Shown here: positions 25 to 45,572 of the stretch, in pieces
How the letters are laid out: the number at the start of each line of letters is the position of its first letter
Position numbering within the stretch: position 1 is the stretch's first letter
Assembly (NCBI GenBank): GCA_033193195.1
Contig: GCA_033193195.1_4326.1
Length of the DNA: 45,624 nucleotides
From: a phage
Strand: one strand, 5' to 3'
Made by a program: the position numbers and the translations under genes
The notes under the pieces: generated by a model
The model's database searches: none
What the model was told of the DNA's origin: nothing
Seen by the model: only the letters and a program-made list of their open reading frames with translations

Positions 25-696
25 ATGGTTGTTTGGTCTTTATTTGATGGTTCAGGGCTGGCTGTGAAAGATTGGGCTGAGGCTGGTCACTAGTGCTACT
101 GTTTCAACTTTGATGAGTCTGACCACGGTAGTTACGGGGATTTAAATGCAAAATTTGAACATGAGAACATCACCTACGTTAATGCCTGGATAGATGGCAA
201 CTTCGACTTTGATGTGAAGCCTGATATCATTTTAGCGTTCCCGCCGTGTACGGATTTAGCCGTGAGCGGGTCAAGGCACTTTGAGCGAAAGCGACTGGTT
301 AACCATAACTTCCAGATTGAAGCTGCGGATACATGTAAAGTTGCTTTTAACTTGGCTAATAAGTACGAAGTCCCATACATGATTGAGAATCCAATCAGCG
401 TACTGTCATCACTCTGGAGAAAGCCTAATAAGACTTTCCACCCATATGAATACGGAGGCTATTTGCCGGAAGATGATTTACACCCGTTTTTTAGCGACCT
501 AATAAAGCCAAGAGACGCATATCCTAAGAAGACATGCATTTGGTATGGCAATGGGTTTAAATGGCCAGAGGCGATTCCTGTGGACGTTAACGATGGATTC
601 TCTGACCAATACAAGAAGCTTGGTGGGAAGAGTAAGAAGACAAAGGTAATTCGCAGTCTAACTCCTCGCGGTTTTGCAAAAGCAGTCTTCATAGCA

Positions 697-714
<18 letters not shown>
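25..714 (+). pseudogene. DNA (cytosine-5) methyltransferase-like gene interrupted by in-frame TAG at 91..93
   Basis: ATG 25 preceded by GAGAGG; N-term MVVWSLFDGSG (motif I-like), then TAG at codon 23, same frame continues to AFPPCTDLAVSG (PC motif IV-like) and MIENP (ENV-like); track ORF 214..714 is the downstream part. Confidence 0.5.
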
Positions 715-1012
<298 letters not shown>

Positions 1013-1013
<1 letters not shown>

Positions 1014-1948
1014 TGGCTCAGGGTATCTATATAGACCTTAATGACGGAAGGAATCCAATGACAATTACCGCAGGGATGAGGGCGTTAAACTTCGCTGGAA
1101 ACTTTAACGTTAATAGTGGTGGCTTTAGTAAGACATTCTCAATTCAGGGAAATGAAGGTGCATCACGTTTTTTAATTCCTAATAATGGTGCCTTCAGCTT
1201 CGAACTTGACAGGGGTGTTGAGGTTTATTATATAAGTGGATTTTCATCAACACCTACATCTGGGACAATCTCAATAGGTTCAGAGAATGGATATTCTGAC
1301 AGGGTCACGTCATTTTCAGGGACTGTTGTTGAGGTCTTGATGGCATCAAGCGGCCAGGGCATATACGTTGCTGATAGTTGTGATTTTGCATCAATAACAA
1401 CTGCTGGCAGGTTGCTAATATGCAAGTACTCTAAAAGGGTAACTTTTACAGGCTCATTCAATCTCCCTATTTATGGAATACCGTTCGGTAAGTGGGATAA
1501 TGATGGAGTTTCAGTTGAGTACAACGGAAGCGGCCAGCTTATTTGCACAAACATAAACACAGGAAATACTGGTGACACCCCAGGAAGTGTAACTATGGAC
1601 CTTGTGATATTTCAGATGGTTGCACCAACGCCTGGGCCTGGCATAAACATTTTCAACTCTAACAATGTTTGCACATTCTCAACATTGACAAGACCATTGG
1701 TTGTGTCTGGATTTATAAGTCTGTCAGGAAGCAATCAATACATAGGTAGTTCATACTTCCCAATACTTAGATGTGGGTTTAACACCAGGGCGACACGTGC
1801 TTACAAGGAGTTGCGAAATAAGGGAATTGTTATGTCCGGTGGATACGTTAGATCTGGTACTGGATCAAGGATTGTGAGATACGAGATTGGTAATAGACCA
1901 GATGTAACCATATCAACTCCATTGCCATACTTGCCTGATATGTATTAA
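1013..1948 (+). CDS. hypothetical protein (beta-rich, Gly/Ser-rich)
   Basis: ATG 1013 overlaps upstream stop (TAATG) with AAGGAG upstream; track start 1004 is GTG. Confidence 0.45.
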
Positions 1949-1976: not shown

Positions 1977-4900
1977 TTAGAACGTGCCTACAATAACTTT
2001 CCCTCCATTCGGTAGGTTAACCGTGATTCCATTGCCGTTAATCTGAACCGTATTGTTAGTTCCGTTAAATGCAAAGTTACCACTATCTGCGTAAAGCCTT
2101 CCATGAATTTCTGCATTACCAGACTTCTCAATCCTCCACCCAGCACTTCCTTGAACAAAGTTGTTTGATTGAATCGAGTTACCAATCTTCGCGTTAGTGA
2201 TTGAACCATCCTGAATCACTGTGCTTTGAATGAATACCTGATTACCTTCAACTACGAAAGGCAATGACCACTGACCGGAACCTGAACTAACACCGTTACT
2301 GATTGCGAACCTGTTAGCATCAAAGATGACCTGACTACGAACATTGCCATCAGAACCAGTTAGCGCCATACTCATGCCAGAACTGTACTCAACGCCATTG
2401 TATTTGAGGCCAAGTTTAATCCCGTACTGAGCACCAATTGAATCGGCAGTAACGTAAGTGTCCAGCTTCTCATTTAACGCAGCCTCATTATCACCTAGCC
2501 TTGCAGATAAAGCAGTGTCCGCAGTGGTCCTTGCTTGCGTCTCTTCCGCTAGCGCCGTATCAATCCTTGTCAATGAAGCTACAATCTCATCATCAATCTG
2601 CGCCTTAAGCTGCGTCAGAGCCTCTACGCGAGCCCTTTCTTCATCGGCGATAAGATTCACAGCCTGAACAAATTCGGCCTTCCTCTTGCCGTTTTCCTTC
2701 GTCATTCTACGCACGTCACCATCATTAGCCAGGGCGTTCTCAATTATTGATTCCGCTTGCGCCTGAATAGCTCCGTTTGACTCAATGGCATTCTGTTGGA
2801 GATACTTGAACCCATCTGAGTTTTCTATATCAACCTTAATATCACCAATGATTGACGACACATCATCGCTTGCCATACCCCTTACAAAATCAGTCCATGG
2901 TGAGACGTTACCAATCTTGTCAATCAGTCGCGCCCTGTACCAGATGACCTTTCCAGCAGGAAGTGTAGTATGCCAGTACTCGTAACTCGGGTAAGGCACC
3001 AGAGTCAGAAGGCTAGCATTCTCTGGTGTATAAGTACCATCACCATTGTCGGCTACTTGCTGCAATTCAGTGTATGACGTATCGGCTGAGTTTTCAGGAA
3101 ATCCCCACTTAACCCTAATGCCGAATATTTCATCATCTGAAGCGGTGATTACTGTAGGTGAAGAAGGGGTCCCAATCTTGCCTGTGAGGCTTACTGAAAC
3201 AATGTCAGACCATGCGGATACGTTTTCAGTATCAGAAACGGCCCTTACGCGAACCTGGTAAATTCCGGCATAGATACCTTCAATATCAACCTCTGTGCTT
3301 GCTGTGCGCGGCACGTTAATCCAGTTTCCGTTCTCCTTGCGCCACTGGACCGTGTAGGTTTTCGCGTACTGAACCTTGTCCCACGTGATTACCATTGTCT
3401 CAACTGATAAACCCTGAACAACCTTACTGTAACTGCTAACCTGAACATTCTCTGGTGCCAGCAGTGTATCCGGCTCGACGATTGAAGTCGGCCTATCAGT
3501 AATGTTTACGCCGTAATCAATTTCGTCGTATTTGTTAGGGTCGTACTCAACCGCTGTAATCGTGTAACCAAACGCATCATCTCCATCGCTGTCTGCTTTT
3601 TGAATACCGGTCACAACATATTGCTGAAGAGCAAGATTTTCCTTATCAATCGCAAATACTGTGTCAGGCTGAGGAGTAAAGCTAAACGCTGTATTAAGTT
3701 GCAGCGTCATACCATCTTCAGATACAGATGCAATGGTCCTGTACTCTGGCATTCCATCAGGCTTGTTAATAAGAATCCTGTCGCCAGCAGCAGCGTCAAT
3801 CTTAAAGGGTACGAAAACCTGCAACCCACTAACAGACTCAATACGCCCAGAAAGATTAAGCGTGTAGTTGCTAGACCATGCCTGGTCATTAACTGCAATC
3901 ACTTCACCAATCATTGGGATCATGCCTTCCAGACCAGTAGTGAAACTGATTGTCTCACTGCGCAAGTTTGTCTTTAACAGCCATCGACCGCGTCTGTTTG
4001 CCTCACTCCTGCGTGTACATCCAATAGCGGTAAGGTCAACAGGGTTGTAACCAAAACGCCTTGTTGCCTCTAACTCGAATACTGGCTCAACATCCTGTTG
4101 GTATGAGTTTTCAACGTCATCAAACTGAACGTTGGCAACCGTGTAAAGTGACTTATCGCTACCAAATGTACGGTTAAAAACACCATCAACAACGTTGTCA
4201 TTGGTGAATACGTACGATGGTTGACGCGGCTTATCGACAACAATCCCTATCTGCTCGCCGTCATAGAATGTCAGCCCACGGAAGATAGAGCAAATATCAC
4301 GGATTACCTGATATGCTTCAACTTTCTGCTGAATGACAACATCACACAGGTAGCGCGGCTCAACTCCACCCTTACCATCTGGAACCATCTGGTCACAGAA
4401 TTGCGCCGCCTCATACAGACCCCACTTATCAATAGTAATGCCAAGCTCTCGCTGGTCAAGTCCGTAACGCTGATTCGTCACCAAGTCGTAAAGAACCCAC
4501 GCCGGGTTATTGGAATACGCCATCTTAAAGGTGCCGTTCCAGGTTCCGCTGTAAGTCCTTGTCTCTGGGTTGTAGTTATTTGGAACGCGAATCAACTTCC
4601 ACTTCTTCTTGATTGAAATCGTCGGGATTCCGTTAGGGAAGAGGTCAGAACTGAACTCAACGTAAACCAGAGCTGTAAGTGGGTAGCGGAATTTAGCATC
4701 AATTACTTCCTGATAGGTCGTAATTTGCATGTCGTTAACCAGCGTCGAACTTTCTGAATCTGCCGTGATCTTACGAACCCTCACCAACGCACTCGAGAAC
4801 TCAGCAGGAAGGTTAACCCTGATACTTCTGTCGTACCCGCTAGTTGTCTTGCCATTAACTACTCCGCGCGTGTACTCAGTGTATGTAGCGCCATCAACGG

Positions 4901-7931: not shown

Positions 7932-10913
7932 TTAGTTGTAACCCCTCAGATAAGCAAAGGCTCTTCCGCCCTGCTGGAATGACTTGCTGATTTCCTCAGC
8001 AACGATAACCTTAACTCCAGATTCTATCGCCTTAGCATCATTTCCGCCACCAATTCCAGAGTTTACGTTAACCGTCACGCCGCCAACACTGACATTCGTG
8101 CCACCAACAACTCCACCATTAGCATAGCCAGAGGGCCCACCAACAGCGCCGCCATTTGCATAACCTCGCATTAGCTTGTACAGGTTCTTAACGCCAATCC
8201 TGCTTGTAGCTTCTTTTGTGAATACAAACTCACCGCGGTGCACAGTTCCAGCAGGTTGATACTTCCCGCCGTCTCCAGTGTAGCCGCCGCCAGCAAAGCC
8301 AATTGCTGACTTTATTGACTCAAAGGCACTACCTGCTCCAGTGTCACCACCAAAGCTCTTAATTGTAGATTCAATAGCCTTTACCAAAAGTAGCTGAGTT
8401 GCAATTTTCGCAATCATTTTCAGTATGTTTGCCGTGAACTCCCTGAAATTAGTCTCTCCAGTGGTTACAAGGTTTGTAATCTGGTCGGTAATTCCATCAA
8501 AAGCTGCGACAGTCAAATCCTTAGCAATTTGGTTGAAGTCAGTGTACTTCTCAGTTAAGTCAGCAAGCGTTGAAGTTACACCAGCTTGCCAGTCTGACCT
8601 TAGGTTATCTTCCTGCCTGTAGTATTCTTTTCTTGCTTCCAGCAGATTCTGGAAATCAACATCATCTACAGAGCCACCCTTGTTTACCTGATTGGACTCT
8701 AGCGCCTTAAGTTCTCCTGCCCTTTGCCGCTCCCTTTCGGATAGACCCGCAGCAAGTGAAACATTCTTCGCCTCATTGGTAATCTGTATTGTCTTCTTAA
8801 GGTTGTCATCAAGTAACTTGTTTGACCTCTCCTGAAGCACAATCTGGTCACCAAGTTCAGCCTTCTGTTTAGCCTGTTCAAGAATGATATTCTTCTGCGC
8901 AAGTAGCTTAGCCTGTAATTTTGTAAGCGTACCATCCGCTTTCCTTTGCTCAAGTATTGCAAACTTAGCTTCCTCCTGGAATAGCTGCTTGCGTTCGTTA
9001 CTTATTACATCGTTTATCGTCCTGTGCTCTTGTAAAACCTTTAGCTGAGCCTGAAGTGCAAGAACGCCAGATTCATAAGATAAGGTTAAATCCCTTTCTT
9101 CTTTTACTGCCTTGTTCCTCTCACTCCTCGCTTTCTTTATCCCATCAAGCTCATCAGCTAGCGCCTTCCTTCTTGCTGCAAATTCCTTATCTGTTGATGG
9201 TTTGTTGCCAGTTAGGTTGATATCGCTGTTTTCCTTAACATATCCCATCTCTCCCTTTCTGATCCTAGCATCTCGCTCAGCGATGCTTCTTGCTAACTCC
9301 TCGTTTTGCTTCTTGGCTGCATCGACAACCTTTTGCTGCTCAGCAATTATGCCGTTACCTACATCACCAAGCCCCGGTATTGACTGAAGCGTCTTGGTTG
9401 CAGCGATAGCAAATTCACCAAGAAGAATGTCGCCTGAGTTTATAAACGACCTTATCTGCTCAATCGTACCAGCAACAACGTCAGTTATTAAGTTAAGAGC
9501 ACCAAGTGTGCGCTTGCCGATTCTATCCCAAATGTCGCTTACAAACTTTCTGAAGCTATTCCATGCACTTTCAAGGGGGTTAAGGCTTAGCGCAACATCT
9601 TCCAGCCTATTCTCCATAACGTTAGCGAATAGCTCAGTAGCTGCCGTTACAGCTTCTGTCTCTCCTGCTGTCTTCCTCAAGTTCTCTATGTGTTTTAACT
9701 GTCCGGACTGAAGGAAGTTAAATTGCTTATCAAGCTCAGCAAGGCCTTTAACCGGGTCTTTTGTGATCTTGTCAAAGTACCCAAGTATAGTTTTTGAATC
9801 CGTTGATGTAACAGTTGCCCACTGAGCAGTTGCTTTGGTTATCTTATCTATCTGCGTAAGCGTTAGATTACCGTTTGCTACAAGACTATTCGCTATCTCT
9901 TGGATGAGTCCGCGCGTGGCTAGCGTGGAACTCTCAATGCTATCAACAACCTGGTTTATTTGCCCTGTTGATGTGATTGTTGAGTTTCCAACCAGCGTTA
10001 TTGTTGCTGCTAGCTCTCGTGCGTTCCTATCAGCCTGATAAGCAGCAATACCCAAGGCCCCAAGAGCCAGACCCAGAGTCCCAACAACCGCCGTTAATGG
10101 GTTAATGGCTGCCAGTGCAAACCTTGCTGTATTGCCGATACCACCAAAACTATCCTTAATCTGACCGCCCTGCTGGACTGCTACAAGCCAGATTGGCATG
10201 CCGCTAGCAAGAGATGTAACGATATCTGTAATCTGCGCTGGAAGCTGTCGAATTGCTTGCTTGTATTGACCGGCACTAAGCCCAGACTTAACAAAAGCGG
10301 AGCTTTGCTTCTGCAATTGTACCGCAGATGCCTCGGCAGCCTTTCCAATCCTGTCGATAATCGGTGCAGCCTGGTCACTAACTCCTAGCTGAGCAGCCTT
10401 AAGCTGAAGAAGTTCAGTCCTTGTCAGGCTTGCTGCATTCGCCTCGTTCTCAAGAGATTGAATGAACTTTTGCGCTGCTGTTGTTGCTTTCTCTTTATCT
10501 ATTGATGCCTGTAGTGCAGCCCTGCCTTCTTCGCTAAGAGCGGCTTTAGACCTGTTTAGCTTATTGATTTGAGTTTCAATAACAGAGCCAAGCCTGAAGA
10601 ATTCATCATCAGGAACTATCCCGGATTCAAATGCTTTGTCCAAATCTGTTGCTGCTTTCTGCAACTTCAGGAATTTAGCAGCGGTTGGGTCTATGGCTTG
10701 CTGAAGTGATGCGAAAGATTTGCGCTGCTCCTCAAGCTGCCTTGCAGTGTCCCTTGCTTGAGTCTTGGCTACAAGTTCGGCGTTGACGAAGCTATTAATG
10801 CCTGTTGCAGCTTGCTCGTTTGCTTGCCTGAATTTCTGTAAGGATTGCGTACCCTTATCGACCTGAGCTACGTCGACGGCTAGCGTGATACCAGCAATTT
10901 CGTTAGTTGCCAT
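7932..10913 (-). CDS. tail tape measure protein
   Basis: 993 aa, long coiled-coil-type Ala/Gln/Lys-rich regions, Gly-rich C-terminus, follows G/G-T chaperone pair. Confidence 0.85.
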   Translation of the reverse strand: MATNEIAGITLAVDVAQVDKGTQSLQKFRQANEQAATGINSFVNAELVAKTQARDTARQLEEQRKSFASLQQAIDPTAAKFLKLQKAATDLDKAFESGIVPDDEFFRLGSVIETQINKLNRSKAALSEEGRAALQASIDKEKATTAAQKFIQSLENEANAASLTRTELLQLKAAQLGVSDQAAPIIDRIGKAAEASAVQLQKQSSAFVKSGLSAGQYKQAIRQLPAQITDIVTSLASGMPIWLVAVQQGGQIKDSFGGIGNTARFALAAINPLTAVVGTLGLALGALGIAAYQADRNARELAATITLVGNSTITSTGQINQVVDSIESSTLATRGLIQEIANSLVANGNLTLTQIDKITKATAQWATVTSTDSKTILGYFDKITKDPVKGLAELDKQFNFLQSGQLKHIENLRKTAGETEAVTAATELFANVMENRLEDVALSLNPLESAWNSFRKFVSDIWDRIGKRTLGALNLITDVVAGTIEQIRSFINSGDILLGEFAIAATKTLQSIPGLGDVGNGIIAEQQKVVDAAKKQNEELARSIAERDARIRKGEMGYVKENSDINLTGNKPSTDKEFAARRKALADELDGIKKARSERNKAVKEERDLTLSYESGVLALQAQLKVLQEHRTINDVISNERKQLFQEEAKFAILEQRKADGTLTKLQAKLLAQKNIILEQAKQKAELGDQIVLQERSNKLLDDNLKKTIQITNEAKNVSLAAGLSERERQRAGELKALESNQVNKGGSVDDVDFQNLLEARKEYYRQEDNLRSDWQAGVTSTLADLTEKYTDFNQIAKDLTVAAFDGITDQITNLVTTGETNFREFTANILKMIAKIATQLLLVKAIESTIKSFGGDTGAGSAFESIKSAIGFAGGGYTGDGGKYQPAGTVHRGEFVFTKEATSRIGVKNLYKLMRGYANGGAVGGPSGYANGGVVGGTNVSVGGVTVNVNSGIGGGNDAKAIESGVKVIVAEEISKSFQQGGRAFAYLRGYN

Positions 10914-10926
10914 GTTGTCTCCATAA

Positions 10927-10952
10927 TAAAAAAGCCACCCCGAAGGATGGCT
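10927..10952 (-). terminator. imperfect hairpin plus T-run upstream of tape measure gene
   Basis: AGCCACC-CCGAA-GGATGGCT then T6 on minus strand; overlaps stop of 10951..11202. Confidence 0.4.
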
Positions 10953-11202
10953 ATTTCTTGGCGTTCATCATATCTAAGGCTTTAGCCTCAAGTATTCTGA
11001 TGTCGTTAAGTACCATTTCGTCATCATCTATTTTATAGACTTTGAATAAGAATGGAAGGCAATTATAATCAAGGCCTGTGGCACCGCAAGCCCCTACTCG
11101 CCATTGAGTTGACATGGCACAGTACACATCCCAGCTTTGCATCATTGTTTCATCGAAGTATAACTCTTCAGGCTCCTCACCTTCATAATCGGAACGTTTC
11201 AT
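10951..11202 (-). CDS. tail assembly chaperone T-like segment (expressed as G-T fusion by -1 frameshift)
   Basis: ORF in -1 frame relative to 11265..11579; that frame is open from slippery site to this ORF. Confidence 0.6.
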   Translation of the reverse strand: MKRSDYEGEEPEELYFDETMMQSWDVYCAMSTQWRVGACGATGLDYNCLPFLFKVYKIDDDEMVLNDIRILEAKALDMMNAKK

Positions 11203-11264: not shown

Positions 11265-11579
11265 TTAGTTTTTTACTCGCTGACCTGCTAGCGCTTTCAT
11301 GTAGCTATCCATCAGTGATGGAACGGCACCAGGGAAAAGGTTGGCAAACTCATCTACGTTCTCATCGGTAAATGGTTCTTCTAAATCCCAGTCAGAGCAG
11401 ATTTCGTTAATCAATTCTTTAGTGCTGAAGTTTTCACGATTAAGAATCTCCTGAAGTTCAGATGATTTCTTGTGCTTAACTGTTAGTACCACCTCTGCAT
11501 CTTCACCATTCGCTAACTGAAACTTAACCGGAAGTTTAAAGTCAGGCAGCGCCTTAAGTGAAAGTTTAAATTTTGCCAT
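11265..11579 (-). CDS. tail assembly chaperone G-like
   Basis: 104 aa acidic protein between major tail and tape measure; ends at slippery site. Confidence 0.65.
   Translation of the reverse strand: MAKFKLSLKALPDFKLPVKFQLANGEDAEVVLTVKHKKSSELQEILNRENFSTKELINEICSDWDLEEPFTDENVDEFANLFPGAVPSLMDSYMKALAGQRVKN
11268..11274 (-). other. -1 programmed frameshift slippery heptamer A_AAA_AAC
   Basis: minus-strand GTA AAA AAC TAA; -1 frame reads KKLKRAVYLQYQSPPTDAELEAIG then MKRSDYEGEE.. Confidence 0.6.
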
Positions 11580-11614
11580 CTCGTTATCTCCTTTGTTTGT
11601 GTTGAATGATTATA

Positions 11615-11863
11615 TTACTTTGATTCGTTTTTTACAATGTTGTGAGCAACTTCGGTGCACACCTCGCGACCATAATGCAGAATCTGATTTGTCTTATCGC
11701 CAGCTACTTTTTCACAATGAGAATATGCACTATTAAATTCATGTTCATACTTTATTGCATCAGAGTTTGCGGTTTCGCCACCAGTTGGGTTAACAATCTG
11801 AATTGCCAGGTAGAAAGCACCAAGAGCAGCAGCAAGTTTGATGATGTTTTTAACGTTGTTCAT
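11615..11863 (-). CDS. small secreted or membrane protein (moron-like insert)
   Basis: N-terminal hydrophobic signal-like segment; own family promoter upstream. Confidence 0.5.
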   Translation of the reverse strand: MNNVKNIIKLAAALGAFYLAIQIVNPTGGETANSDAIKYEHEFNSAYSHCEKVAGDKTNQILHYGREVCTEVAHNIVKNESK

Positions 11864-11896
11864 TTCACTAATATCTCATTTCGTTTCGATGAATGA

Positions 11897-11941
11897 ACTA
11901 TACAGCAATCCGCGATTTGGTCTTTAACAAAAAGTGCTATC
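11897..11941 (-). promoter_or_regulatory. family promoter for 11615..11863
   Basis: minus-strand GATAGCACTTTTTGTTAAAGAC, TATAGT -10, CATCGAAACGAAA leader. Confidence 0.55.
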
Positions 11942-11943
11942 AA

Positions 11944-11967
11944 TAAAAAACCCTCCGAAGAGGGTTT
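11944..11967 (-). terminator. rho-independent terminator after major tail gene
   Basis: AACCCTC-TTCGG-AGGGTT then T6 on minus strand. Confidence 0.7.
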
Positions 11968-11971
11968 ATAT

Positions 11972-12631
11972 TTATGCCAGTTCAGAAGCTACAGAACTCA
12001 ACCTACCACGGATAGATACCGCGATGGATACCGTTTCGATTTCGTTAACACCAATGCTTGGGGTGTCGTTGAAAGCGATAGTGCCAGACTGGAGACGCAT
12101 CTCTCTAGCTCGAGGTACGAACAGACGAATAGCAACAGTAGTACCAGTTTCGTCATAGTTACGCAGAATCGGATATATCGGGTTGGTGTATTCGTGCGCA
12201 AACGTGTAGGTGTTGGTTACCGCAGACTTATAAGTTGGAATCTGCTGCTCACGTTCATCAGATAAACACTGGAAGTTAACGAACTGCTGTTCGCCGCCAT
12301 CAGTGGATACGTCCTGAACACAAGGAACTTCAAACCAAGTAAGAATCTTAACAACTTCACCAGTTAAGCCAGCTGGGAACTTAGTGGTGTTGGAGGTATC
12401 AATACCTTCAACAGTTACGGTTGAACCAGATACCTCGGTAACGCGAACTTGCTTATCAGCCAGCAGGGTCGAAGCTGAGCTGGTAAATAGCAGGTAATCA
12501 CCGCGTGCAATATCAGCAACGCTGGACAAAGTTAAAACAGGAGTAACAGCATTGGAAATTGCAGTTACGTCAATAGTAGCTCCCCTGGAGCCTTCTACGA
12601 AGACCTGAGTGCCATTACTAAGATGGGCCAT
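11972..12631 (-). CDS. major tail protein
   Basis: 219 aa immediately upstream of G/G-T chaperones, followed by strong terminator. Confidence 0.65.
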   Translation of the reverse strand: MAHLSNGTQVFVEGSRGATIDVTAISNAVTPVLTLSSVADIARGDYLLFTSSASTLLADKQVRVTEVSGSTVTVEGIDTSNTTKFPAGLTGEVVKILTWFEVPCVQDVSTDGGEQQFVNFQCLSDEREQQIPTYKSAVTNTYTFAHEYTNPIYPILRNYDETGTTVAIRLFVPRAREMRLQSGTIAFNDTPSIGVNEIETVSIAVSIRGRLSSVASELA

Positions 12632-12642
12632 ATATTTTCCTT

Positions 12643-13041
12643 TTAGTCAAGACGAACATAGAAACGAACTGGAATAAACCAGCCAGATTTTGACTTCACT
12701 ACTGGGTGAACCACGCCGCCCTCATAAATGTAGCCTGTGTCAAGCATTGTACCATCAGTCATGGATTCTGCCAATTGATTAGCAACCCTCCTTGCACTGT
12801 CGACACCATCACCTGGTGAGAAAAAGACGGATACCTGAACCATGCCAACATAGTACTTACACTTGCGACTCAGGCTGTAGGTTACGGTATCTGCCTCTGT
12901 GTAATCGTATTTCAGCCACATACCACCATTATTGGGAGGAGAGAAGGCTACGTTTTCATAGGAAATTGGATACCTGACTGGAAACGTTTTAACCAAATCA
13001 GTCACAAACCTCCTTGCTGCTAAGGATAGCTCATACTGCAT
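12643..13041 (-). CDS. tail terminator protein (U-like), positional call
   Basis: gene order only. Confidence 0.4.
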   Translation of the reverse strand: MQYELSLAARRFVTDLVKTFPVRYPISYENVAFSPPNNGGMWLKYDYTEADTVTYSLSRKCKYYVGMVQVSVFFSPGDGVDSARRVANQLAESMTDGTMLDTGYIYEGGVVHPVVKSKSGWFIPVRFYVRLD

Positions 13042-17375: not shown

Positions 17376-18104
17376 TTATGACTCCCAATCCGGCACAGCC
17401 CAACAACGACAGCCGTATTCCTGACCAGGGAAGAGATCGTTACCGCCCAACCTGAAGCTTAGGCCCTCTTTCTTGAAATGGGTCATTCGCTCCCTTTCAT
17501 CAAGCATGCCGTGCCAAATGTAATGGGTAACACCAGCATCCTCTAGCCTCCTGCGCATGAACGTAGAGTTAATACTGGACGTGATGCCTGAGGCTATATT
17601 AGCAGTTCTCTTGCGGTAAATCTTGTACCTTTCGTTAATCTTAAGGTAGTCACCACTCTGTATGATTGATGCAGACTGAATAAAGTCGTCCTTGATATTG
17701 TTGAGTAACTTTTCAACGGACTTATTTGATGTGTAAAGCCACTGGTTTAAATCCGGCTGATACCAATCTTCATCTCCATTTATACCGTTAAGTCTCAAGT
17801 CCATAACTGACTGAACCGAGCCGCCACCGGTCTTGATTGCCAGCACAAGAAACTGCGATGAATTATACCTGTATATTGACGCTCCAATTGCCGGAAGTGT
17901 AGCTACAACAGAAGCTATAAGCGCTGCTATGATTGCGTCGAGATAATTATCTTCCTGCTCTAGCTCCTCGGCAGTGTCAATCTTAAGCCGCGTAGCTGAT
18001 TCTTTCATTGCAGATATTAGCTCAGTTACCGCAACGCTAAGGTTGCGGTTTACCTGATTCTCAATTGTCTGCGGGTACTTCCAGCGGGTCTTCACTGGTT
18101 TCAT
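17376..18104 (-). CDS. minor head / head morphogenesis protein
   Basis: position directly after portal gene. Confidence 0.45.
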   Translation of the reverse strand: MKPVKTRWKYPQTIENQVNRNLSVAVTELISAMKESATRLKIDTAEELEQEDNYLDAIIAALIASVVATLPAIGASIYRYNSSQFLVLAIKTGGGSVQSVMDLRLNGINGDEDWYQPDLNQWLYTSNKSVEKLLNNIKDDFIQSASIIQSGDYLKINERYKIYRKRTANIASGITSSINSTFMRRRLEDAGVTHYIWHGMLDERERMTHFKKEGLSFRLGGNDLFPGQEYGCRCWAVPDWES

Positions 18105-19396: not shown

Positions 19397-19750
19397 TTAC
19401 TCGAATTTTACTTCGAAATTGATTGATGATGTTTTCACTCCATTAAGTGTTAACTGGCGAACCTCCCTTCTGACTTCATAAAATGCCTCTTTAGTTACTA
19501 TGTTTTTGTTGATGAAGTATTTAATCCCAGCCTTTTCAACTTTAAAATTATCACCTTTAACGACAAAATCGGTAGGCTCTATAACTTCGAAATCATAAAC
19601 ACTAAGATTAATTACGCCAAAATAGCCTTTATCATCCTTAACTTTGACGTATTCATTATTACTTCCAGACGTTCTTGATAAGTCATAAATCTTACCAACG
19701 GTAAACTCAAAATAACCATCTTTTTTATACCCTTTAAATACTGCTTTCAT
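19397..19750 (-). CDS. hypothetical protein
   Basis: 117 aa with own family promoter upstream. Confidence 0.5.
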   Translation of the reverse strand: MKAVFKGYKKDGYFEFTVGKIYDLSRTSGSNNEYVKVKDDKGYFGVINLSVYDFEVIEPTDFVVKGDNFKVEKAGIKYFINKNIVTKEAFYEVRREVRQLTLNGVKTSSINFEVKFE

Positions 19751-19779
19751 TTTTTTACTCCTCTCGTTTGCGTGAAGTA

Positions 19780-19825
19780 ACTATAATCCATCCTTGGCGG
19801 AGTGTCTTTAGCAAAACGTGCTATT
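19780..19825 (-). promoter_or_regulatory. family promoter for 19397..19750
   Basis: minus-strand AATAGCACGTTTTGCTAAAGAC, TATAGT -10 22 nt downstream. Confidence 0.55.
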
Positions 19826-21440
19826 TGATGCCAGCGAGGCGCATCATCCTCGATTTAGGGTCTTCTGCAATGTTCAGTACCAGGTTGACAGCCATTGTCA
19901 AACAGTCTATCTGGTCATCGTGAACATGTGAATCATCTGCCGTGAATGCCGCAATCTCCGTTAGCAAGCCATTAAGCCAAGTAGCAGACTCCGGAAGGAT
20001 TACGTTACCAGCTTTAATCTGCGGTAATGCACTCATTACGCGAGTCAGCTTATCGTTATCTGGCACGTACGGCTCGATAGGCGTTCGCATAACCCTTCCG
20101 GCTGATTGAATCAGGCCAATACCAGAGGCTTTCTTCTCGATGATGATTTTACGAAGGATGCCATCTATCTGATTGGATGCCCTAGCCATCTTCTCGAAAT
20201 CCAATAACTCAGCCTCGAGCTCAGGAGCTTCAAATTTACCGCGTCGCTGGTCAAGCAGATAAATCTTCCCATCCTTATAACCCCATAGCTGCATGACGCT
20301 AAAGTCGCTGTAACTTTTGGTTGTCATCGCAGTATCAAGGACCATAAACCTGTAATCGTACTTAGCTGGCGGTCGCAGAGTGTCGCTAATGCGTTGAAGC
20401 CAGTCTACGTTAATCAGGTTGCCGCCAAGTGCTACTGGTTCTTGCTGATACTGGCTAAGGAATGTATAGCTATCAGAATCCCACATTGCAATTAGGTCGT
20501 GAACAGATTCCTTGCCAGGGAAATAGCTATAGTACCTAACACCATCACGCTCAATATATTCGCTTGATAGAACGTCATCAATGAATTGCTGCTTAATCCA
20601 GTCAGGAAGCGTGTCGACGTAATCCTCAGTTACGAGCGCCGGTATCTTAATCAAGTCGAAGCTAATACCCATACCGCCATTCATCATGAACCACGTACTA
20701 TCGTTCACATGAAGGCGCTGTTGGATAGAGATAATCGGCGTCGCCTTGCCTTTTACCGAGCTAGCCCTACGAGAACGTATGGTGTTCTTTAGCATCACAT
20801 GGTTGTTGGCACGGAATACAGCCGAAAGCATATCTGCAGGTTTGTCAAAATCATCTAACAGTACCGCACCACTATACGAATCGGTTATATATCCACCCCT
20901 TGCGCCTGTAATTTGGCCGCCAGTGGCTTTAGAGATTGACTCAAACCTGACCTTGCCATAGTCATCCAGGACCTGTAGCTCATCATCCTTACACGTACCA
21001 AACTTACATGGGAACAACTCCTGGAACTCAACAGACTTAATTAAGTCGCGCACACGCTTGGAGTTACGCTTAACCAGTGAGTCAGCATACGATATATTCA
21101 GGTTCCTTACCTTTCTCAACTTAACCATTGAGTAGGCTGGGAAGTGAATTGAGGCTATCTCTGTTTTTCCGCTACCTGGTGCTATGTTAATGATAGTGTC
21201 CTTGCGCTCACCTGCTATAATCTCGTCAATGATTCTGCAAAGGTATTTATGATGCCAGTTTGGGATGTACCGCTCTCCCTGAGTTAGCTGGAACCACACC
21301 CGCAAGAATCCCTCGAAGCTATGAGTGGATATCGCCTTAACCGCCATCTTTTCTGCTGGCGTCATTTCCTCCCAAACTAAATTAGCCATAATTTCACCAA
21401 TCCAACCATCACGCCAATTAAGAATCCAGTTGTGAAGCAT
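19821..21440 (-). CDS. terminase large subunit
   Basis: P-loop IAPGSGKT, C-terminal nuclease-like acidic residues, 539 aa. Confidence 0.85.
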   Translation of the reverse strand: MLHNWILNWRDGWIGEIMANLVWEEMTPAEKMAVKAISTHSFEGFLRVWFQLTQGERYIPNWHHKYLCRIIDEIIAGERKDTIINIAPGSGKTEIASIHFPAYSMVKLRKVRNLNISYADSLVKRNSKRVRDLIKSVEFQELFPCKFGTCKDDELQVLDDYGKVRFESISKATGGQITGARGGYITDSYSGAVLLDDFDKPADMLSAVFRANNHVMLKNTIRSRRASSVKGKATPIISIQQRLHVNDSTWFMMNGGMGISFDLIKIPALVTEDYVDTLPDWIKQQFIDDVLSSEYIERDGVRYYSYFPGKESVHDLIAMWDSDSYTFLSQYQQEPVALGGNLINVDWLQRISDTLRPPAKYDYRFMVLDTAMTTKSYSDFSVMQLWGYKDGKIYLLDQRRGKFEAPELEAELLDFEKMARASNQIDGILRKIIIEKKASGIGLIQSAGRVMRTPIEPYVPDNDKLTRVMSALPQIKAGNVILPESATWLNGLLTEIAAFTADDSHVHDDQIDCLTMAVNLVLNIAEDPKSRMMRLAGIK

Positions 21441-23975: not shown

Positions 23976-24398
23976 TCAGATTTTGTTAATTTGCTCAAAC
24001 TTCTCAAACCAGAAAACAACTGGATCCTCCACTATGGAGATGAGGCCGAACCGCTCTGCCGTGCGAAAATTCATGCTGCTCTTACGCCCGCGAGCGACTT
24101 GAAGAGACACCTGTTCCCTGAACATTTCAAGGGAATAGCAAGCTTTCATGAGGTTGCATGGAGCACATGCAGGGTAAAGGTTTTCCATTCGATCAGCTTG
24201 TGGTCGATTAAACTCACCTGTCGCCTTCAGCTTGAAAGTTCCTTTCTCCGCTGCCTTCATGCATACCTCAGATTTACGTAGCACCGGTTCAACATGGTCA
24301 GCATGCCAGCCTTTCTCAGGTAGTTCACACCCACAATAAGCGCAGCGACCACCGAACTTGCCCTTCAACTCTTCCCTTTGAGATTTGCTTAATTTCAT
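23976..24398 (-). CDS. HNH endonuclease
   Basis: CAYCGC..WHADHVEPV..N..CAPCN zinc/HNH motif pattern. Confidence 0.75.
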   Translation of the reverse strand: MKLSKSQREELKGKFGGRCAYCGCELPEKGWHADHVEPVLRKSEVCMKAAEKGTFKLKATGEFNRPQADRMENLYPACAPCNLMKACYSLEMFREQVSLQVARGRKSSMNFRTAERFGLISIVEDPVVFWFEKFEQINKI

Positions 24399-25286: not shown

Positions 25287-25886
25287 ATTCGTTACTCCTG
25301 ATTGGTTGCTCTTCGTTAAGATGAAACCATGGTATCATGAATATACGCGTTATCAAGTGTTATGTTGTGTTTATATCTGCATTGGTTACGCTTTTTGACC
25401 TCTCAGCCCAGCTATAGCTGGTGTAATTACCCTGTGTAAGATTTTACGCGGATTCGCCGGGGGTATGCATATGTATCTATATAGATAAAATTAGTAGTTT
25501 TCATAGAAAAACTATCGACCCATCAATACGACCAATCTACACCATATACATACATATATATAATAATAATAATAATATAGTAAAAGGTTGATATATATAG
25601 ATATTATTATGTAACCATTGCGTAATCTAGCGTGGTAGGCGTGTATGATTCTTCGGAAGCGCACCTCATATACACACCATAACTTCGATAACGTGTATAT
25701 CCAAATTGGCTCAGCAAGAATCAAAATCAACTTGTATGGTAGTTCATCCACCATTCATTCACCCTCACATCAATCATTGCAAATCCCGCAACAATCAAAA
25801 ACATCATTGCATTCGATGCAATATTGTTATATGTGCAATAGTAAGATTAATCATTGCAATATCTGCAACAATAGATAAATCCAACG
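25287..25886. promoter_or_regulatory. control region A: AT-rich noncoding divergent-promoter region, paralogous to 45108..45572
   Basis: shared blocks with region B (CAGCCCAGCTATAGCT; ATAATAATAATAATA..GGTTGATATATATAGATATTATTATGTAAC); palindrome TATCTATATAGATA; TTGCAA-core repeats 25760..25880. Confidence 0.6.
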
Positions 25887-26705: not shown

Positions 26706-26869
26706 TGCTTTTACCATCTGAGATAAACTATTTCGATCTGGAAGTCATAAGTGCTTACAGCGGAAAGGGTTGGCCTTGCGGGGACTGGTTTAACGAGGAC
26801 CTGCTTGAGTCTCACGAGATTATGTTGAAGGCAATTGAGAAGGCCAGAAAAAATAGCACTAATTGCTAA
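26705..26869 (+). CDS. small hypothetical protein ending inside promoter element (..KNSTNC)
   Basis: TAATG overlap start; stop TAA is part of AATAGCACTAATTGCTAA. Confidence 0.4.
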   Translation: MLLPSEINYFDLEVISAYSGKGWPCGDWFNEDLLESHEIMLKAIEKARKNSTNC

Positions 26870-26896
26870 AACTCACCGCCACTGATGGCGTATATT
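26852..26896 (+). promoter_or_regulatory. family promoter
   Basis: AATAGCACTAATTGCTAAAAC, TATATT 26891..26896, leader CATCGAAACGAAAGAGAG. Confidence 0.55.
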
Positions 26897-26928
26897 TACT
26901 CCATCGAAACGAAAGAGAGCAAGAGATC

Positions 26929-29660: not shown

Positions 29661-30026
29661 CCTGAATATCATTAAGAGCAGAATGATGATGACGCAAAAC
29701 ATGATTCCACTCCCAATCCACGGGATTGCAGACGAATCATTGTTGGTGATTTCAATCTTCTCAGCCGTGATTGTTGATGCCTTGATTGAGTTATCAGAAG
29801 TCTTTTTACCGCTTGAACTATCAAGAGTGTCAACCTTAGAGTTCTTCACTTCAGCCTTTGCGCTGGAACTTGAATCAACCTTATTAGTTAGCCCTACTCC
29901 AACCTTGTTATTCTCCGCACCTGCTTGAGCGCTAATCTCTGGCTTACTACCAATCAACCCGGTCAGCGCATGAGTTGCCGAGCAACCAGAAAGTATAATT
30001 ACCTCAGCAATTAACGCAGCCTTCAT
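29640..30026 (-). CDS. candidate unimolecular spanin (lipoprotein signal + C-terminal TMD)
   Basis: N-term lipobox ILSGC, C-term hydrophobic IPWIGSGIMFCVIIILLLMIF, adjacent to endolysin. Confidence 0.55.
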   Translation of the reverse strand: MKAALIAEVIILSGCSATHALTGLIGSKPEISAQAGAENNKVGVGLTNKVDSSSSAKAEVKNSKVDTLDSSSGKKTSDNSIKASTITAEKIEITNNDSSAIPWIGSGIMFCVIIILLLMIFRKNKKAP

Positions 30027-30508
30027 TTACCCACCCCACTTAAGCATAATTTAATCTCCTCGTTGCGCCTGTTAACTAGACCTTTAACAACTTTTAGCTT
30101 GCCATTTACTCGAGCTTTATTCCAGGAGGCGAGAGCATTACAACCCTCTTCAATCTTGCCCTGATTAATCAGCCTTACTGCCGTTGACTTCCTCATTGCA
30201 GCGCCACCAACGTTGTAGCTAAAGCTGATTAACGCCGCCCTTGTCTGTGGAGAGATTGGGTAAGTTACTGCATCCTGCACATACTTTCCATGAATCTGGA
30301 TGTGTTTCTCCAGTAAGTTCCTGCACTCCCTTGCACTGTACTTTTTACCCCACACCACATCAGGACCAGTGATACCTGAACAAACCGTAGGAATGCCTGA
30401 AATGTCCATGTAAGGCTTGTATTCCACACCTTCTACTAGCTCAATAATCGGCGCTGCGATGTATATTGCTGCTGCCGTCGCTGCACTAATTACCAGCTTC
30501 TGCTTCAT
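30023..30508 (-). CDS. endolysin, lysozyme-like with N-terminal SAR-type segment
   Basis: weakly hydrophobic Ala/Gly-rich N-term; E-x8-D-x5-T catalytic spacing. Confidence 0.75.
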   Translation of the reverse strand: MKQKLVISAATAAAIYIAAPIIELVEGVEYKPYMDISGIPTVCSGITGPDVVWGKKYSARECRNLLEKHIQIHGKYVQDAVTYPISPQTRAALISFSYNVGGAAMRKSTAVRLINQGKIEEGCNALASWNKARVNGKLKVVKGLVNRRNEEIKLCLSGVGK

Positions 30509-30723
30509 TACTTACTCCTAATATTGATAGCTGTTTTTAAATCTCCTGACTCTAGCGCTTTCCTGATTGCCTGACTGTCCTTAAACTTCCAATATGCTCC
30601 CCACAGCCCGAAAACAACAAGAGCCACAAGGCTGATTATTGCTATAGTCATTTGACCAGTTGCGGCACCAGTTACAGCGGCTCCGCCGGTTGATGCCGTG
30701 GCGGCGTTAATTACTTCCCTCAT
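30508..30723 (-). CDS. holin candidate
   Basis: 71 aa from ATG 30723 with GGTGA SD; one strong TMD; TAATG overlap with endolysin. Confidence 0.55.
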   Translation of the reverse strand: MREVINAATASTGGAAVTGAATGQMTIAIISLVALVVFGLWGAYWKFKDSQAIRKALESGDLKTAINIRSK

Positions 30724-30796
30724 GTGATCACCTTTAAATCCTAATTTGTCAATACATAGTGCAAATATCATACATTAGGCGGTGGCAAATTATAAG

Positions 30797-32112: not shown

Positions 32113-32167
32113 TACAACTCCCCATCTCGTTATCGTTTATTCATTTGGCCTCAATCCTTTGAGGCTT

Positions 32168-32187
32168 TATTAACAAAAAGTGCTATT
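32168..32187 (-). promoter_or_regulatory. family upstream element (no clear -10)
   Basis: minus-strand AATAGCACTTTTTGTTAATAA then hairpin GCCTCAAAGGATTGAGGC. Confidence 0.4.
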
Positions 32188-33319
32188 ACTTAAACATTTC
32201 AGGTCGGCAAGTGAATCGACCAACTTCACCGTACTCTGAGCTATAGATAATTACTGAGGCCTGACGATAAGAGCGATACCCTCTGTTTGAGCTGTACGCA
32301 TCTTTAGCACCCAACTGACCGTGTGACTCATCAATTCCAAGATTACCCTCAGTAACCGTCTGATGATGATAATGGCCACTATGTGTATAAACGTATTCAG
32401 CATTACCAAATGCTTTGCGATGGTCGCGCGCAAGAGTTGAAAGACGAGTGTCAGGCTTTCGCAATTCATGACCATGGCAGTAACCCAACAATGTTTTACC
32501 AAACTCCGTCACGTGAAGAGCGGCTGGTGAGACATCAACATTTACACGAGGCTCATCCATGTAGAAGGCAGCCATTGCAGCTCGAAGCCAAATCATCCCA
32601 GAAAGGTCGTGGTTGCCTGGTATAATCTGAACCTCAACCTCTTTATGCTTGTCAAGCATCTTACTGACGGCGCGGCGAGTTGCACGAACAGCTACGTAGA
32701 CAAGTTTATGATAACGGCTATCTTGATCAAGTACGTGCTTGCTGGTTGGAGTTACAGCTTCCATTCCATCCGAGTGAAGGAAGTCTCCACCAATCAGTAA
32801 TACGGCTTTTGATGAATTCGGGGCCTTAGCAACTGCATAATCAAAGTATTGGTTAAGCACTCGCTCTGCAATTTCTGTACTGTAGTTCTCCCCACACTCT
32901 GCATGGTGAGCCATTGCGCCAATATGCATATCAAACACGGGGTAGAGGCTCAAGGTGTCCTCATAGCTTGATTCACTGAGTGGTTTCGGAGTCTCTCGAG
33001 GGAGCTCATCTGTAAGCGCCTGAACAATCTGCTGAAGCATCTCTTCTTGTTTCTGTTCGTCGATGGAAGTTTTAACCCAGCGCAGCTTCTCATTACCATC
33101 CGCATCAATCATTGTTGAAGTGCCTTTAACAAGATAGCCATCAGGAACTAGCTTCTTGATGCCTTCATTACCATGCCCAACCCCACTCTTAGCCAACTTG
33201 CTACGACGAAGCTCAACGTTTCGAATGTTCATTCCGTACTTCTCTGCAATCGCCTTGTTAGTCAGGCCGTTTTTCAGTTCTTCGATCAACTGCTCGTTGG
33301 TAATCTTTGCTGCTGCCAT
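32186..33319 (-). CDS. metallophosphoesterase with N-terminal HTH-like segment
   Basis: GDFLHSDG and GNHD motifs typical of calcineurin-like phosphoesterases. Confidence 0.5.
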   Translation of the reverse strand: MAAAKITNEQLIEELKNGLTNKAIAEKYGMNIRNVELRRSKLAKSGVGHGNEGIKKLVPDGYLVKGTSTMIDADGNEKLRWVKTSIDEQKQEEMLQQIVQALTDELPRETPKPLSESSYEDTLSLYPVFDMHIGAMAHHAECGENYSTEIAERVLNQYFDYAVAKAPNSSKAVLLIGGDFLHSDGMEAVTPTSKHVLDQDSRYHKLVYVAVRATRRAVSKMLDKHKEVEVQIIPGNHDLSGMIWLRAAMAAFYMDEPRVNVDVSPAALHVTEFGKTLLGYCHGHELRKPDTRLSTLARDHRKAFGNAEYVYTHSGHYHHQTVTEGNLGIDESHGQLGAKDAYSSNRGYRSYRQASVIIYSSEYGEVGRFTCRPEMFK

Positions 33320-34440: not shown

Positions 34441-34478
34441 TTTCTTTCTCTCTTTGTGTGTTTCGTTTCGATGAGTTG

Positions 34479-34525
34479 ATAATACACCAACTCACCAATT
34501 CGTCTTTAGCAATTCGTGCTATTTT
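34479..34525 (-). promoter_or_regulatory. family promoter for 34246..34440
   Basis: minus-strand AATAGCACGAATTGCTAAAGAC, TATTAT, CATCGAAACGAAACACAC. Confidence 0.6.
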
Positions 34526-40137: not shown

Positions 40138-40160
40138 AATTTTAGCAATTCGTGCTATTT
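40138..40160. promoter_or_regulatory. orphan copy of family element in opposite orientation to the downstream gene
   Basis: TTTAGCAATTCGTGCTATTTT with no consensus -10 in either direction. Confidence 0.4.
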
Positions 40161-43867: not shown

Positions 43868-43897
43868 TCCCCATCTCTCTTTCGTTTCGATGGGGTA

Positions 43898-43944
43898 ATG
43901 ATACCCCACCTGTTAATTTTGTCTTTAGCAATTAGTGCTATTTT
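43898..43944 (-). promoter_or_regulatory. family promoter for annealase/SSB unit
   Basis: minus-strand AATAGCACTAATTGCTAAAGAC, TATCAT, CATCGAAACGAAAGAGAG. Confidence 0.6.
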
Positions 43945-45107: not shown

Positions 45108-45572
45108 TTCTCTATCTCTCTATTTTTGCGTGCTTTCGATTAGTTAATGATGCCGCACGCAAGACACACAGTCCAATTGGTATCACCGATTAATTAATCA
45201 AGTATACGCGTATAAATCCGTAACTACGTGTAGACATTGCCATTAGTTACGTTTTTCACCACTTCAGCCCAGCTATAGCTCAATGTAAATAGTGCGTATA
45301 CCGTGTATACCGATTTTTGCGGAGGGTGCATAGGTATATGCGCCACGCAATACTGTATAAAATCACATTATATAAAAATTATAACCGGAACACTCCAGAA
45401 CAGTAGTTACATGATATACACAGTAATATATATAATAATAATAATAAGAGTAAATGGTTGATATATATAGATATTATTATGTAACTATGGCGTATCAAAG
45501 CGTAACTAGGCGTATACGATTTCCCGCTGATGCATATGGTATACATAGAGTTACATCGGTTACGCGTAACCA
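45108..45572. promoter_or_regulatory. control region B: AT-rich noncoding divergent-promoter region paralogous to region A
   Basis: same conserved blocks as 25380..25650; palindrome GGTTACGCGTAACC at 45558..45571. Confidence 0.6.

Follow-up and report, generated by a model that had tools for sequence, protein, structure and literature searches.

A small gene for a predicted exported protein in a variable slot of the tail operon of T1-like phages

What is a gene for a small, apparently exported protein doing inside a phage tail operon, between the gene for the major tail protein and that for a tail assembly chaperone? We address this question for ORF82, an open reading frame (ORF) of 82 amino acids in a stretch of phage DNA of 45,624 nucleotides, here called the window (contig GCA_033193195.1_4326.1 of NCBI GenBank assembly GCA_033193195.1). 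Comparison with the nearest records, Escherichia phages ES, AN_ECEAS, CY1, Rao1 and TR1-3, which are 88-93% identical to it in nucleotide sequence across the region, places the window phage among the T1-like siphoviruses of the Drexlerviridae, in the Braunvirinae. The Drexlerviridae, its closest relatives, are described as virulent (PMC8421802). On the minus strand the tail genes run in the order tail terminator protein, major tail protein (MTP), the slot occupied by ORF82, chaperone G, chaperone part T, a transcription terminator, and tape-measure protein (TMP). A first-pass annotation, made from the sequence alone, had recorded an 82-residue frame between the major tail and G genes, where we find it as well, and had interpreted it as a moron-like insert: a secreted small protein with a private promoter and flanking terminators, unrelated in function to the structural genes around it.

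ORF82 and the other occupants of its slot

Several lines of evidence show ORF82 to be a real gene. A tblastn search finds full-length homologues in 82 phage records, located in the same slot in every record inspected, and the frame is open over 82-88 residues in every relative examined. Comparison with five relatives gives ratios of non-synonymous to synonymous substitution rates (dN/dS) of 0.09-0.40. The codon log-likelihood per codon is 0.415 for ORF82, against 0.375 for G and 0.22 for T, while none of the other five frames on the two strands exceeds 0.007. An antisense ORF of 84 residues at 11642-11896 (+) was considered and rejected, its frame being interrupted by stop codons in CY1 and ES and its codon score being poor. 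The G+C content of ORF82, 39.0%, compares with a gene mean of 43.0 +/- 4.0 (rank 10 of 66); both composition and codon usage are native rather than foreign. The protein matches the hidden Markov model (HMM) of phrog_22925, a family of unknown function, over its full length (E 4.7e-28, residues 1-82 of 82). The first 28 codons are far more conserved than the remainder, at synonymous and non-synonymous sites alike, which we attribute in part to conservation at the nucleotide level of the promoter, leader and start region.

The slot itself is variable. It is empty in all five phages sampled from four other Drexlerviridae groups, namely T1 (Tunavirinae), KP36 (Webervirus), e4/1c and C119 (Rogunavirinae), and KarlJaspers (Tempevirinae); in these phages G comes straight after the terminator that ends the MTP gene, and only 74-113 nt lie between the MTP and chaperone genes. 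The Braunvirinae examined all share the terminator, a promoter and its leader, and differ in the cargo that comes after them. One kind of cargo is ORF82, in three clades found respectively in the window, CY1 and ES, in EC3a, JeanPiccard, 12210I and others, and in ACG-M12, whose variant has 88 residues. The clades are 48-57% identical to one another. In amino acid sequence, 50-57% identity between clades compares with 83-87% for MTP, and ORF82 thus changes faster than its neighbours. CY1, TR2, TR3 and Rao1 carry an unannotated 46-residue ORF with two transmembrane segments followed by ORF82. Rtp, AugustePiccard, RobRod40 and MM01 have instead an rtp34-type lipoprotein of 128 residues with the lipobox LLAG/C, and TR1 and several assembled contigs have a second lipoprotein type, of 126 residues and 32% identical to rtp34. 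TR1 is of the same genus as CY1, and its G is 99% identical to G of the window, yet it has a lipoprotein where CY1 and the window have ORF82. The pattern is thus one of a slot empty in the five phages named, and filled by lipoproteins in Rtp, AugustePiccard, RobRod40, MM01 and TR1, rather than that of a structural component conserved in all relatives, which the first-pass annotation had named as the finding that would speak against an insert.

The 46-residue ORF (phrog_16572) lies between promoter and ORF82 at about 2486-2623 (-) of the CY1 locus and is found elsewhere, at 32135-32272, in phiA2-1; it appears to move between slots.

We considered remote homology between ORF82 and the rtp34-type lipoproteins and rejected it (hhalign probability 0.2%; BLASTP identities of 17-26%). 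Parts of the two kinds of cargo are nevertheless found joined, an ORF82-type signal standing on a lipoprotein-type mature domain. In the chimera P0036, an N-terminus of the ACG-M12 type of ORF82, up to INPTGE, replaces the lipoprotein signal and is followed by a TR1-type mature domain; in P0040, an rtp34-like domain carries a signal that is not of the lipoprotein kind. Both chimeras are natural. It follows from P0036 that the ORF82 N-terminus would be an interchangeable export module.

That N-terminus has the tripartite structure expected of a signal, and we predict it to be a Sec-type export signal. It begins MNNVKNIIK, with Lys5 and Lys9 in the n-region, continues with a hydrophobic core of 12-15 residues (h-region LAAALGAFYLAIQIV, core L10-I21/V24), and ends in the turn NPTGG and then ETA, with a candidate cleavage site after Ala32 and NS beyond it. 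Ala32, at position -1, is invariant. Most homologues have A-T-A before Asn33 and this copy has E-T-A; at position -3, Ala, Ser or Thr predominates among the homologues, with Glu in this copy, in P0002 and in ACG-M12, and Gly29 offers an alternative site. Cleavage of the signal is therefore likely but not certain. SignalP 4.1 and TMHMM are both positive for MSK_000011, a 56%-identical homologue in phage MSK (PMC8421802), and the earlier description of the protein as secreted, with a signal-like N-terminus, agrees with these features. Virion bands of MSK on denaturing gels (SDS-PAGE) were assigned by size only and are uninformative for the ORF82 homologue. The mature part, of about 50 residues, is predicted to form a helical hairpin (AlphaFold2, pLDDT 67, a weak model). 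Cys50 and Cys69 are invariant across the aligned homologues; no Cys precedes residue 50, and there is no lipobox. The mature domain may be periplasmic, either free or, if the signal stays uncleaved, anchored.

Because it lies within the tail operon and would share a transcript with G and T, ORF82 could be taken for a conserved structural or tail-assembly component, or else for a spurious ORF. Neither is credible to us beyond a trace: five phages of other Drexlerviridae groups with the same tail genes lack it, unrelated proteins take its place, an export signal is incompatible with tail assembly in the cytoplasm, and a spurious frame is hard to reconcile with the purifying selection and the codon usage. 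With high confidence, we regard ORF82 as a genuine accessory gene in a cargo-swapping hotspot of the Braunvirinae.

Transcription signals around the slot

The MTP gene is followed by a hairpin with an 8-bp stem, a UUCG loop and a T-run (-12.3 kcal/mol, z-score -3.55; 0 of 200 shuffled sequences fold as well). This is the terminator that the first-pass annotation had placed at 11944..11967; the hairpin proper spans 11948-11967. Because the insert-less T1, KP36, e4/1c and KarlJaspers carry an equivalent terminator after the MTP gene, we judge it to be the ancestral MTP terminator and not specific to the insert. A search of Rfam gave only a sub-threshold match to rsmX, overlying the terminator. 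No terminator was found between ORF82 and G, where the 35-nt spacer folds at 0 kcal/mol; the next one lies after G and T. Since none intervenes, G should be co-transcribed downstream of ORF82. Thus the upstream member of the proposed flanking pair is present, though as ancestral property of the MTP gene, and the downstream member is absent.

Between the terminator and ORF82 lies a promoter belonging to a repeat family with 14-15 copies in the window, on both strands. Its consensus reads AATAGCAC-N4-TTGCTAAAGAC, a spacer of 16-17 nt, a TATAAT-like hexamer, about 8 nt, and then CATCGAAACGA. The ORF82 copy, which the first-pass annotation had delimited as 11897..11941, has the box ATAGCAC-N5-TGTTAAAGAC at 11920-11940, a -35-like AAGACC at 11919-11924, a 16-nt spacer, the -10 element TATAGT at 11897-11902, and the leader CATCGAAACGAAA at 11879-11891. 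Against a profile HMM built from the 13 other copies in the window its score of 42.9 bits (E 2e-12) ranks within the upper half of the family, while the best of 30 shuffled sequences reaches 10.1 bits. Promoter and leader are kept upstream of every cargo type in the Braunvirinae examined, and a forward copy appears at the slot only where a cargo gene is present, so the notion of a private promoter is upheld by the sequence comparison. Other copies stand before genes for replication and for structural proteins, small ORFs that are unannotated, the lysis cassette, the portal region and the receptor-binding locus, and we read the family as the general promoter of the phage for host RNA polymerase. 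Initiation at the ORF82 copy is predicted near 11890, with ORF82 as first cistron and transcription continuing through G and T until it meets the terminator at 10933-10952.

A second promoter, with a sigma-70-like sequence, overlaps the spacer and the 3' part of ORF82. The other ORF82 clades retain its TTGTAA-17-TATAAT in the form TTGCAA-17-TAGAAT or TACAAT, and phiSITE annotates a promoter at this place in EC3a. Empty-slot phages have a -10-like element directly before the ribosome-binding site of G, which in e4/1c and C119 reads TGTTATAAT and to which the embedded sequence is homologous. The embedded sequence is probably the ancestral promoter of G and T, with initiation predicted near 11602. 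The added unit, very likely, consists of the family promoter and a cargo ORF, set between the old MTP terminator on one side and the old G promoter and ribosome-binding site on the other.

Morons have been defined as extra DNA at an otherwise syntenic position with its own promoter, its own terminator, a deviant base composition, and expression from the prophage (PMC3594210). The ORF82 unit has the extra gene and the promoter, and to that extent the description as moron-like stands; it has neither a terminator of its own nor foreign composition. Prophage expression is probably not applicable to a family described as virulent, although lysogeny genes were not searched for specifically.

Some features of the promoter family are recorded here in their own right. 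Examples of its sites are 43878-43943 (-), 34460-34525 (-), 26851-26916 (+), 694-760 (+) and 19760-19827 (-). The family box holds a 5-bp palindrome, TAGCA-N5-TGCTA, 22 nt upstream of the -10 element, and the leader CATCGAAACGA follows each copy. Given that distance, the true -35 element is probably the adjacent aaGACa, and the box looks more like the site of a dimeric regulator, or an UP-like element, than like a -35 element. Strong hairpins (z-score <= -3) occur in 7 of 14 family promoters, those at 43940, 34521, 31098, 24662 and 32185 (all -) and at 26854 and 27634 (+), and an eighth is weaker (z-score -2.3). They mostly lie across the spacer or the -10 region, in a few cases just upstream of the -10 element, with a different stem sequence in each; the ORF82 copy has none. 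An exact inverted copy of the 20-mer box upstream of ORF82, TTGATAGCACTTTTTGTTAA, lies directly upstream of the G ribosome-binding site in the insert-less T1 and KarlJaspers (at about 1775-1796 and 1770-1791 of the respective loci). A related inverted box occurs in the window at 40141-40160, after a terminator and just upstream of the start of an 859-residue tail-fibre-like ORF. From its orientation, the inverted box is not the -35 element of the downstream gene.

Cargo, tape-measure protein and possible function

The kind of cargo in the slot co-varies with the type of one part of a protein encoded further downstream, the TMP. The TMP centre, residues ~285-600, is 15-21% identical between the types found in ORF82 phages (A, B and a third subtype, D) and type C, found in lipoprotein phages; the segments flanking the centre are 60-99% identical between ORF82 and lipoprotein phages. 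All 16 examined loci with ORF82 have a TMP centre of the A/B/D family, although three of these assignments rest on partial TMP sequence and TMP length only. A lipoprotein-type mature domain goes with a type C centre at 11 of 12 loci; within the set so paired, identity falls to as little as 50% among the lipoproteins and 41% among the TMP centres. Six records of the phage database have a C-type centre at >=87% identity, and they coincide with the six that carry a lipoprotein. A metagenome scan for C-type TMP loci returned nothing, and scans of IMG/VR returned mostly the same isolates. The genes between cargo and TMP centre, that is G, T and the N-terminus of TMP, assort independently of the cargo: G, T and TMP residues 1-170 of EC3a, which has ORF82, are 93-99% identical to those of the Rtp group, and the 83-residue and 103-residue forms of T each occur with both cargo families. 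Linkage between elements that are not adjacent suggests co-selection of cargo and TMP centre. The first-pass statement that the insert is unrelated in function to its structural neighbours may consequently be too strong, given this co-variation with the nearby TMP.

The central third of TMP is, as a separate observation, a replaceable module: between phages of the Rtp type and of the window type it is 15-21% identical, against 60-97% for the N- and C-terminal parts. Both types are distributed across the Drexlerviridae, and the module starts just after two hydrophobic segments that resemble transmembrane segments.

We tentatively propose, as a reading that may well prove wrong, that ORF82 is a TMP-matched superinfection-exclusion factor acting after adsorption, at the stage of DNA injection. 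Its export signal means that ORF82 could not meet TMP during tail assembly in the cytoplasm, and could meet only TMP that has been ejected into the envelope. In the periplasm or at the inner membrane, ORF82 would interfere with the channel formed by the TMP of a later-arriving phage of the same type, acting either on TMP directly or through a host factor used by that TMP type. HK97 gp15 and TP-J34 Ltp have been proposed to act in such a way. In phages with the other TMP central domain, the same part would be played by the rtp34-type lipoproteins. The more general form of this proposal, in which ORF82, the two lipoprotein types and the chimeras are interchangeable periplasmic blockers of the TMP conduit, each matched to one of two centres, is more doubtful.

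The same co-variation, together with the periplasmic location and the promoter-proximal position of the gene, would fit a role in the phage's own infection, in which ORF82, acting early, plugs or stabilises the TMP conduit that the infecting particle leaves behind in the envelope, and so averts leakage and premature death of the cell. We know of no precedent for such channel sealing in T1-like phages, which counts against it, and empty-slot phages with the same TMP types apparently manage without ORF82. A sealing or envelope-repair factor is thus an improbable identity for this protein.

Several observations weigh against the proposal of TMP-matched exclusion. The chimera at locus L030 pairs a lipoprotein-type domain with a type A TMP and so breaks the rule. 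The association holds at the family level only: we found no fine-scale co-evolution of ORF82 with the TMP centre, and between ACG-M12 and EC3a the ORF82 proteins are 49% identical and the TMP centres 98%. The naive Fisher test for cargo and TMP type, p 6e-7, overstates the case, as the loci are phylogenetically non-independent and represent perhaps 4-6 independent lineages. Phages with an empty slot carry both TMP types. Because its promoter family stands upstream of such varied genes, the timing of ORF82 expression cannot be inferred from the promoter. Homology searches likewise fail to connect ORF82 with any protein of known function. Pfam and PADLOC give no match, and PHROGs gives only the family of unknown function already named. 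An exhaustive HMMER scan of 1.84 billion representative sequences returned just one sister cluster and one hit of 2454 residues, and a Foldseek search with the AlphaFold2 model found nothing at E <= 0.001 in either BFVD or PDB.

The 2454-residue hit was rejected as spurious, being a eukaryotic protein of Sushi/CUB repeats whose score is summed over 7 repeats. A k-mer search yielded no more than 8 close relatives among 5.8 billion proteins, a PDB profile search with ORF82 found nothing better than E 0.2, and in the literature nothing was found on the phage gene rtp34 (the sole hit being an unrelated cell-biology paper), on bas02_0014 or on phrog_22925. Across Pfam, PADLOC, PDB and Foldseek, ORF82 shows no relatedness in sequence or fold to the characterised injection-stage exclusion proteins. 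However, those proteins, among them HK97 gp15, TP-J34 Ltp and P22 SieA, do not form a single homologous family, and the missing relatedness is therefore no argument against the mechanism.

Superinfection exclusion by HK97 gp15 was reportedly described by Cumby et al. in 2012. The gp15 protein is a small exclusion protein of the inner membrane, which hybrid phages with the tail tube and TMP genes of HK022 escape (PMC3594210, PMC10883804). Like ORF82, it is encoded by a small envelope-targeted gene with its own promoter, situated in a siphovirus tail operon by the chaperone and TMP genes and absent from syntenic relatives. The dependence of its specificity on the tail/TMP region of the incoming phage parallels the co-variation of cargo and TMP at the ORF82 slot. 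The two differ in exact position, gp15 lying between the chaperone and TMP genes and ORF82 between the major tail and chaperone genes. They differ also in that the HK97 gene has its own terminator, deviant G+C content and prophage expression, whereas ORF82 has no terminator of its own, native composition and membership in a family described as virulent. In position, gp15 is the nearest precedent for ORF82; no annotated exclusion family was matched in Pfam, PHROGs or PADLOC.

A second comparison is with Ltp of TP-J34, a lipoprotein that blocks DNA injection and from which escape maps to TMP (PMC10883804); its target is the tape-measure protein, according to Bebeacua et al. 2013 as cited in PMC3952083 and PMC10883804. 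Both Ltp and, by prediction, ORF82 are exported outside the cytoplasmic membrane, and the alternative cargos of the ORF82 slot are lipoproteins as Ltp is. However, Ltp is expressed from the prophage of a temperate phage of a Gram-positive host, whereas ORF82 is no lipoprotein, and the searches of PDB by sequence and fold, in which any deposited structure of Ltp would be covered, gave no match to it. The rtp34-type lipoproteins of Rtp, AugustePiccard, RobRod40, MM01 and TR1 share slot, promoter and leader with ORF82, are exported too, and have exchanged signals with it in the chimeras; they differ in being lipid-anchored, in a mature domain unrelated to that of ORF82, and in accompanying a different TMP central domain. 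Injection-stage exclusion proteins reside in or outside the cytoplasmic membrane, and the same is predicted for ORF82 from its export signal and the interchange of signals with lipoproteins.

ORF82 is an accessory gene that evolves fast, encodes an exported product and shares its hotspot with other cargos, as is typical of arms-race loci. It might accordingly modulate the envelope, or neutralise an envelope-associated defence of the host or a prophage, or a periplasmic protease or nuclease, without acting on phages that arrive later. This is unlikely, as it leaves the association with the TMP central domain unexplained and as no PADLOC or anti-defence family was matched.

The Ala/Gly-rich h-region LAAALGAFYLAI resembles a signal-anchor-release (SAR) domain, and the window encodes a SAR-type endolysin and a holin at 30023-30771. 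ORF82 also presumably resembles T4 RI, so a role in lysis timing is conceivable, either as an RI-like antiholin that senses superinfection or as a modulator that tunes the holin or the SAR endolysin. We see only a small chance of this, for the lysis cassette is unlinked, 18 kb away, the holin is 93% identical between window and TR1 despite their different cargos, and the slot can hold lipid-anchored lipoproteins instead. More broadly, we take ORF82 to be similar to T4 Spackle, Imm and RI in combining an N-terminal signal or anchor with a small helical periplasmic domain; searches of PDB by sequence and with Foldseek gave no significant match of ORF82 to any chain, the presence of Spackle, Imm and RI structures there being unchecked, and we do not regard membership in this group as supported.

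Virulent siphoviruses have small exported exclusion proteins of another kind, Cor of T1, Llp of T5 and Rtp45, which are linked to the receptor locus and track the receptor. ORF82, as a small exported protein of a T1-like phage with lipoproteins as alternative cargos, could be a protein of this type and block an outer-membrane receptor. Unlike those proteins, however, it has no lipobox, its first Cys being residue 50, it lies in the tail-shaft module, away from the receptor-binding locus, and it does not track the receptor. AugustePiccard, with a lipoprotein cargo, and JeanPiccard, with ORF82, both use LptD, and IME253, with ORF82, uses FepA (PMC8594841). Thus one cargo family goes with more than one receptor, and LptD serves phages whose cargos differ; the BASEL receptor data (PMC8594841) show that the cargo family does not follow the outer-membrane receptor, and we rejected a receptor-linked function. 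A lipoprotein gene distinct from the slot cargo is, moreover, already present next to the receptor-binding locus of the phage; it lies at 783-1013 (+) and encodes a 76-residue protein with the lipobox MMVG/C (phrog_4281). Receptor masking by ORF82 is thus very improbable.

The gene at 783-1013 overlaps the start of another at 1004-1948 (+), which encodes a 314-residue 'membrane protein' of phrog_1265 downstream of a gpJ homologue. A family promoter at 694-760 lies ahead of the pair, and by position the two are counterparts of rtp44 and rtp45, a pair for receptor binding and exclusion. Rtp45 is the characterised LptD-linked lipoprotein of Rtp (PMC12685063).

We place ORF82 among the accessory genes for exported proteins inserted in tail operons. 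Its exchangeable signal for export and the seeming agreement of cargo with TMP type are what deserves experiment. How siphovirus DNA crosses the periplasm, and the role of TMP there, are poorly understood. If TMP-matched exclusion were true, T1-like virulent phages would have in it their first injection-stage exclusion system, and it would give a genetic handle on the TMP central domain in the periplasm. It would also provide matched pairs of inhibitor and target, ORF82 with TMP types A and B and the lipoproteins with type C, in tractable E. coli phages (BASEL Bas01-03, TR1-3). Phages sharing cargo and TMP type might then exclude each other, which would bear on the design of phage cocktails and on T1-like phages as fermentation contaminants. 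If the function is a different one, the slot still offers, in a virulent phage, a clean example of a hotspot for cargo swapping whose export signals behave as modules.

Layout of the window

Table 1. Features of the ORF82 slot and the surrounding tail operon in the window, in order of transcription.
Feature	Positions	Strand	Evidence or remarks
Tail terminator protein gene	12643-13041	-	
Major tail (tube) protein (MTP) gene, upstream neighbour of slot	11972-12631	-	PF08813 E 4e-66; phrog_584
MTP terminator	11940-11967	-	stem 11948-11967, UUCG loop, T-run 11940-11947
Family promoter and conserved leader	11877-11940	-	leave-one-out HMM; repeat family D1; pattern scan
ORF82	11615-11863	-	ATG start, 82 aa, phrog_22925; stop codon 11615-11617
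ORF82 signal peptide (predicted), codons 1-32	11768-11863	-	
ORF82 mature ~50-aa two-helix domain (predicted), invariant Cys50 and Cys69	11618-11767	-	
Sigma-70-like promoter TTGTAA-17-TATAAT, ORF82 3' end and spacer	11609-11637	-	10/12 consensus matches
Spacer, ORF82 stop to G start, 35 nt	11580-11614	-	unstructured, 0 kcal/mol
Tail assembly chaperone G gene	11265-11579	-	PF08748 Phage_TAC_4 E 1e-32
Chaperone T part, DUF1799	10951-11202	-	PF08809 E 5e-14
Terminator closing ORF82-G-T unit, upstream of TMP gene	10933-10952	-	-15.5 kcal/mol, z-score -4.6
Tape-measure protein (TMP) gene, 993 aa	7932-10913	-	
TMP central region, residues ~285-600	9114-10061	-	type co-varies with kind of slot cargo

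Differences between the window and TR1 are not confined to the slot. TMP is 48% identical between the two, the 314-residue protein by the receptor-binding locus 43%, and the neighbouring G and T 96-99%. Several ORFs of the window are without counterpart in TR1, at 17376-18104 (-), 19397-19750 (-), 36615-37088 (-) and 23976-24398 (-). TR1 has HNH endonuclease genes at other places, and the genome is highly mosaic.

The window also contains two AT-rich direct repeats at 25367-25633 and 45228-45503, about 19.9 kb apart, with segments of 53 and 96 nt that are 74-75% identical (repeat families D3 and D12).

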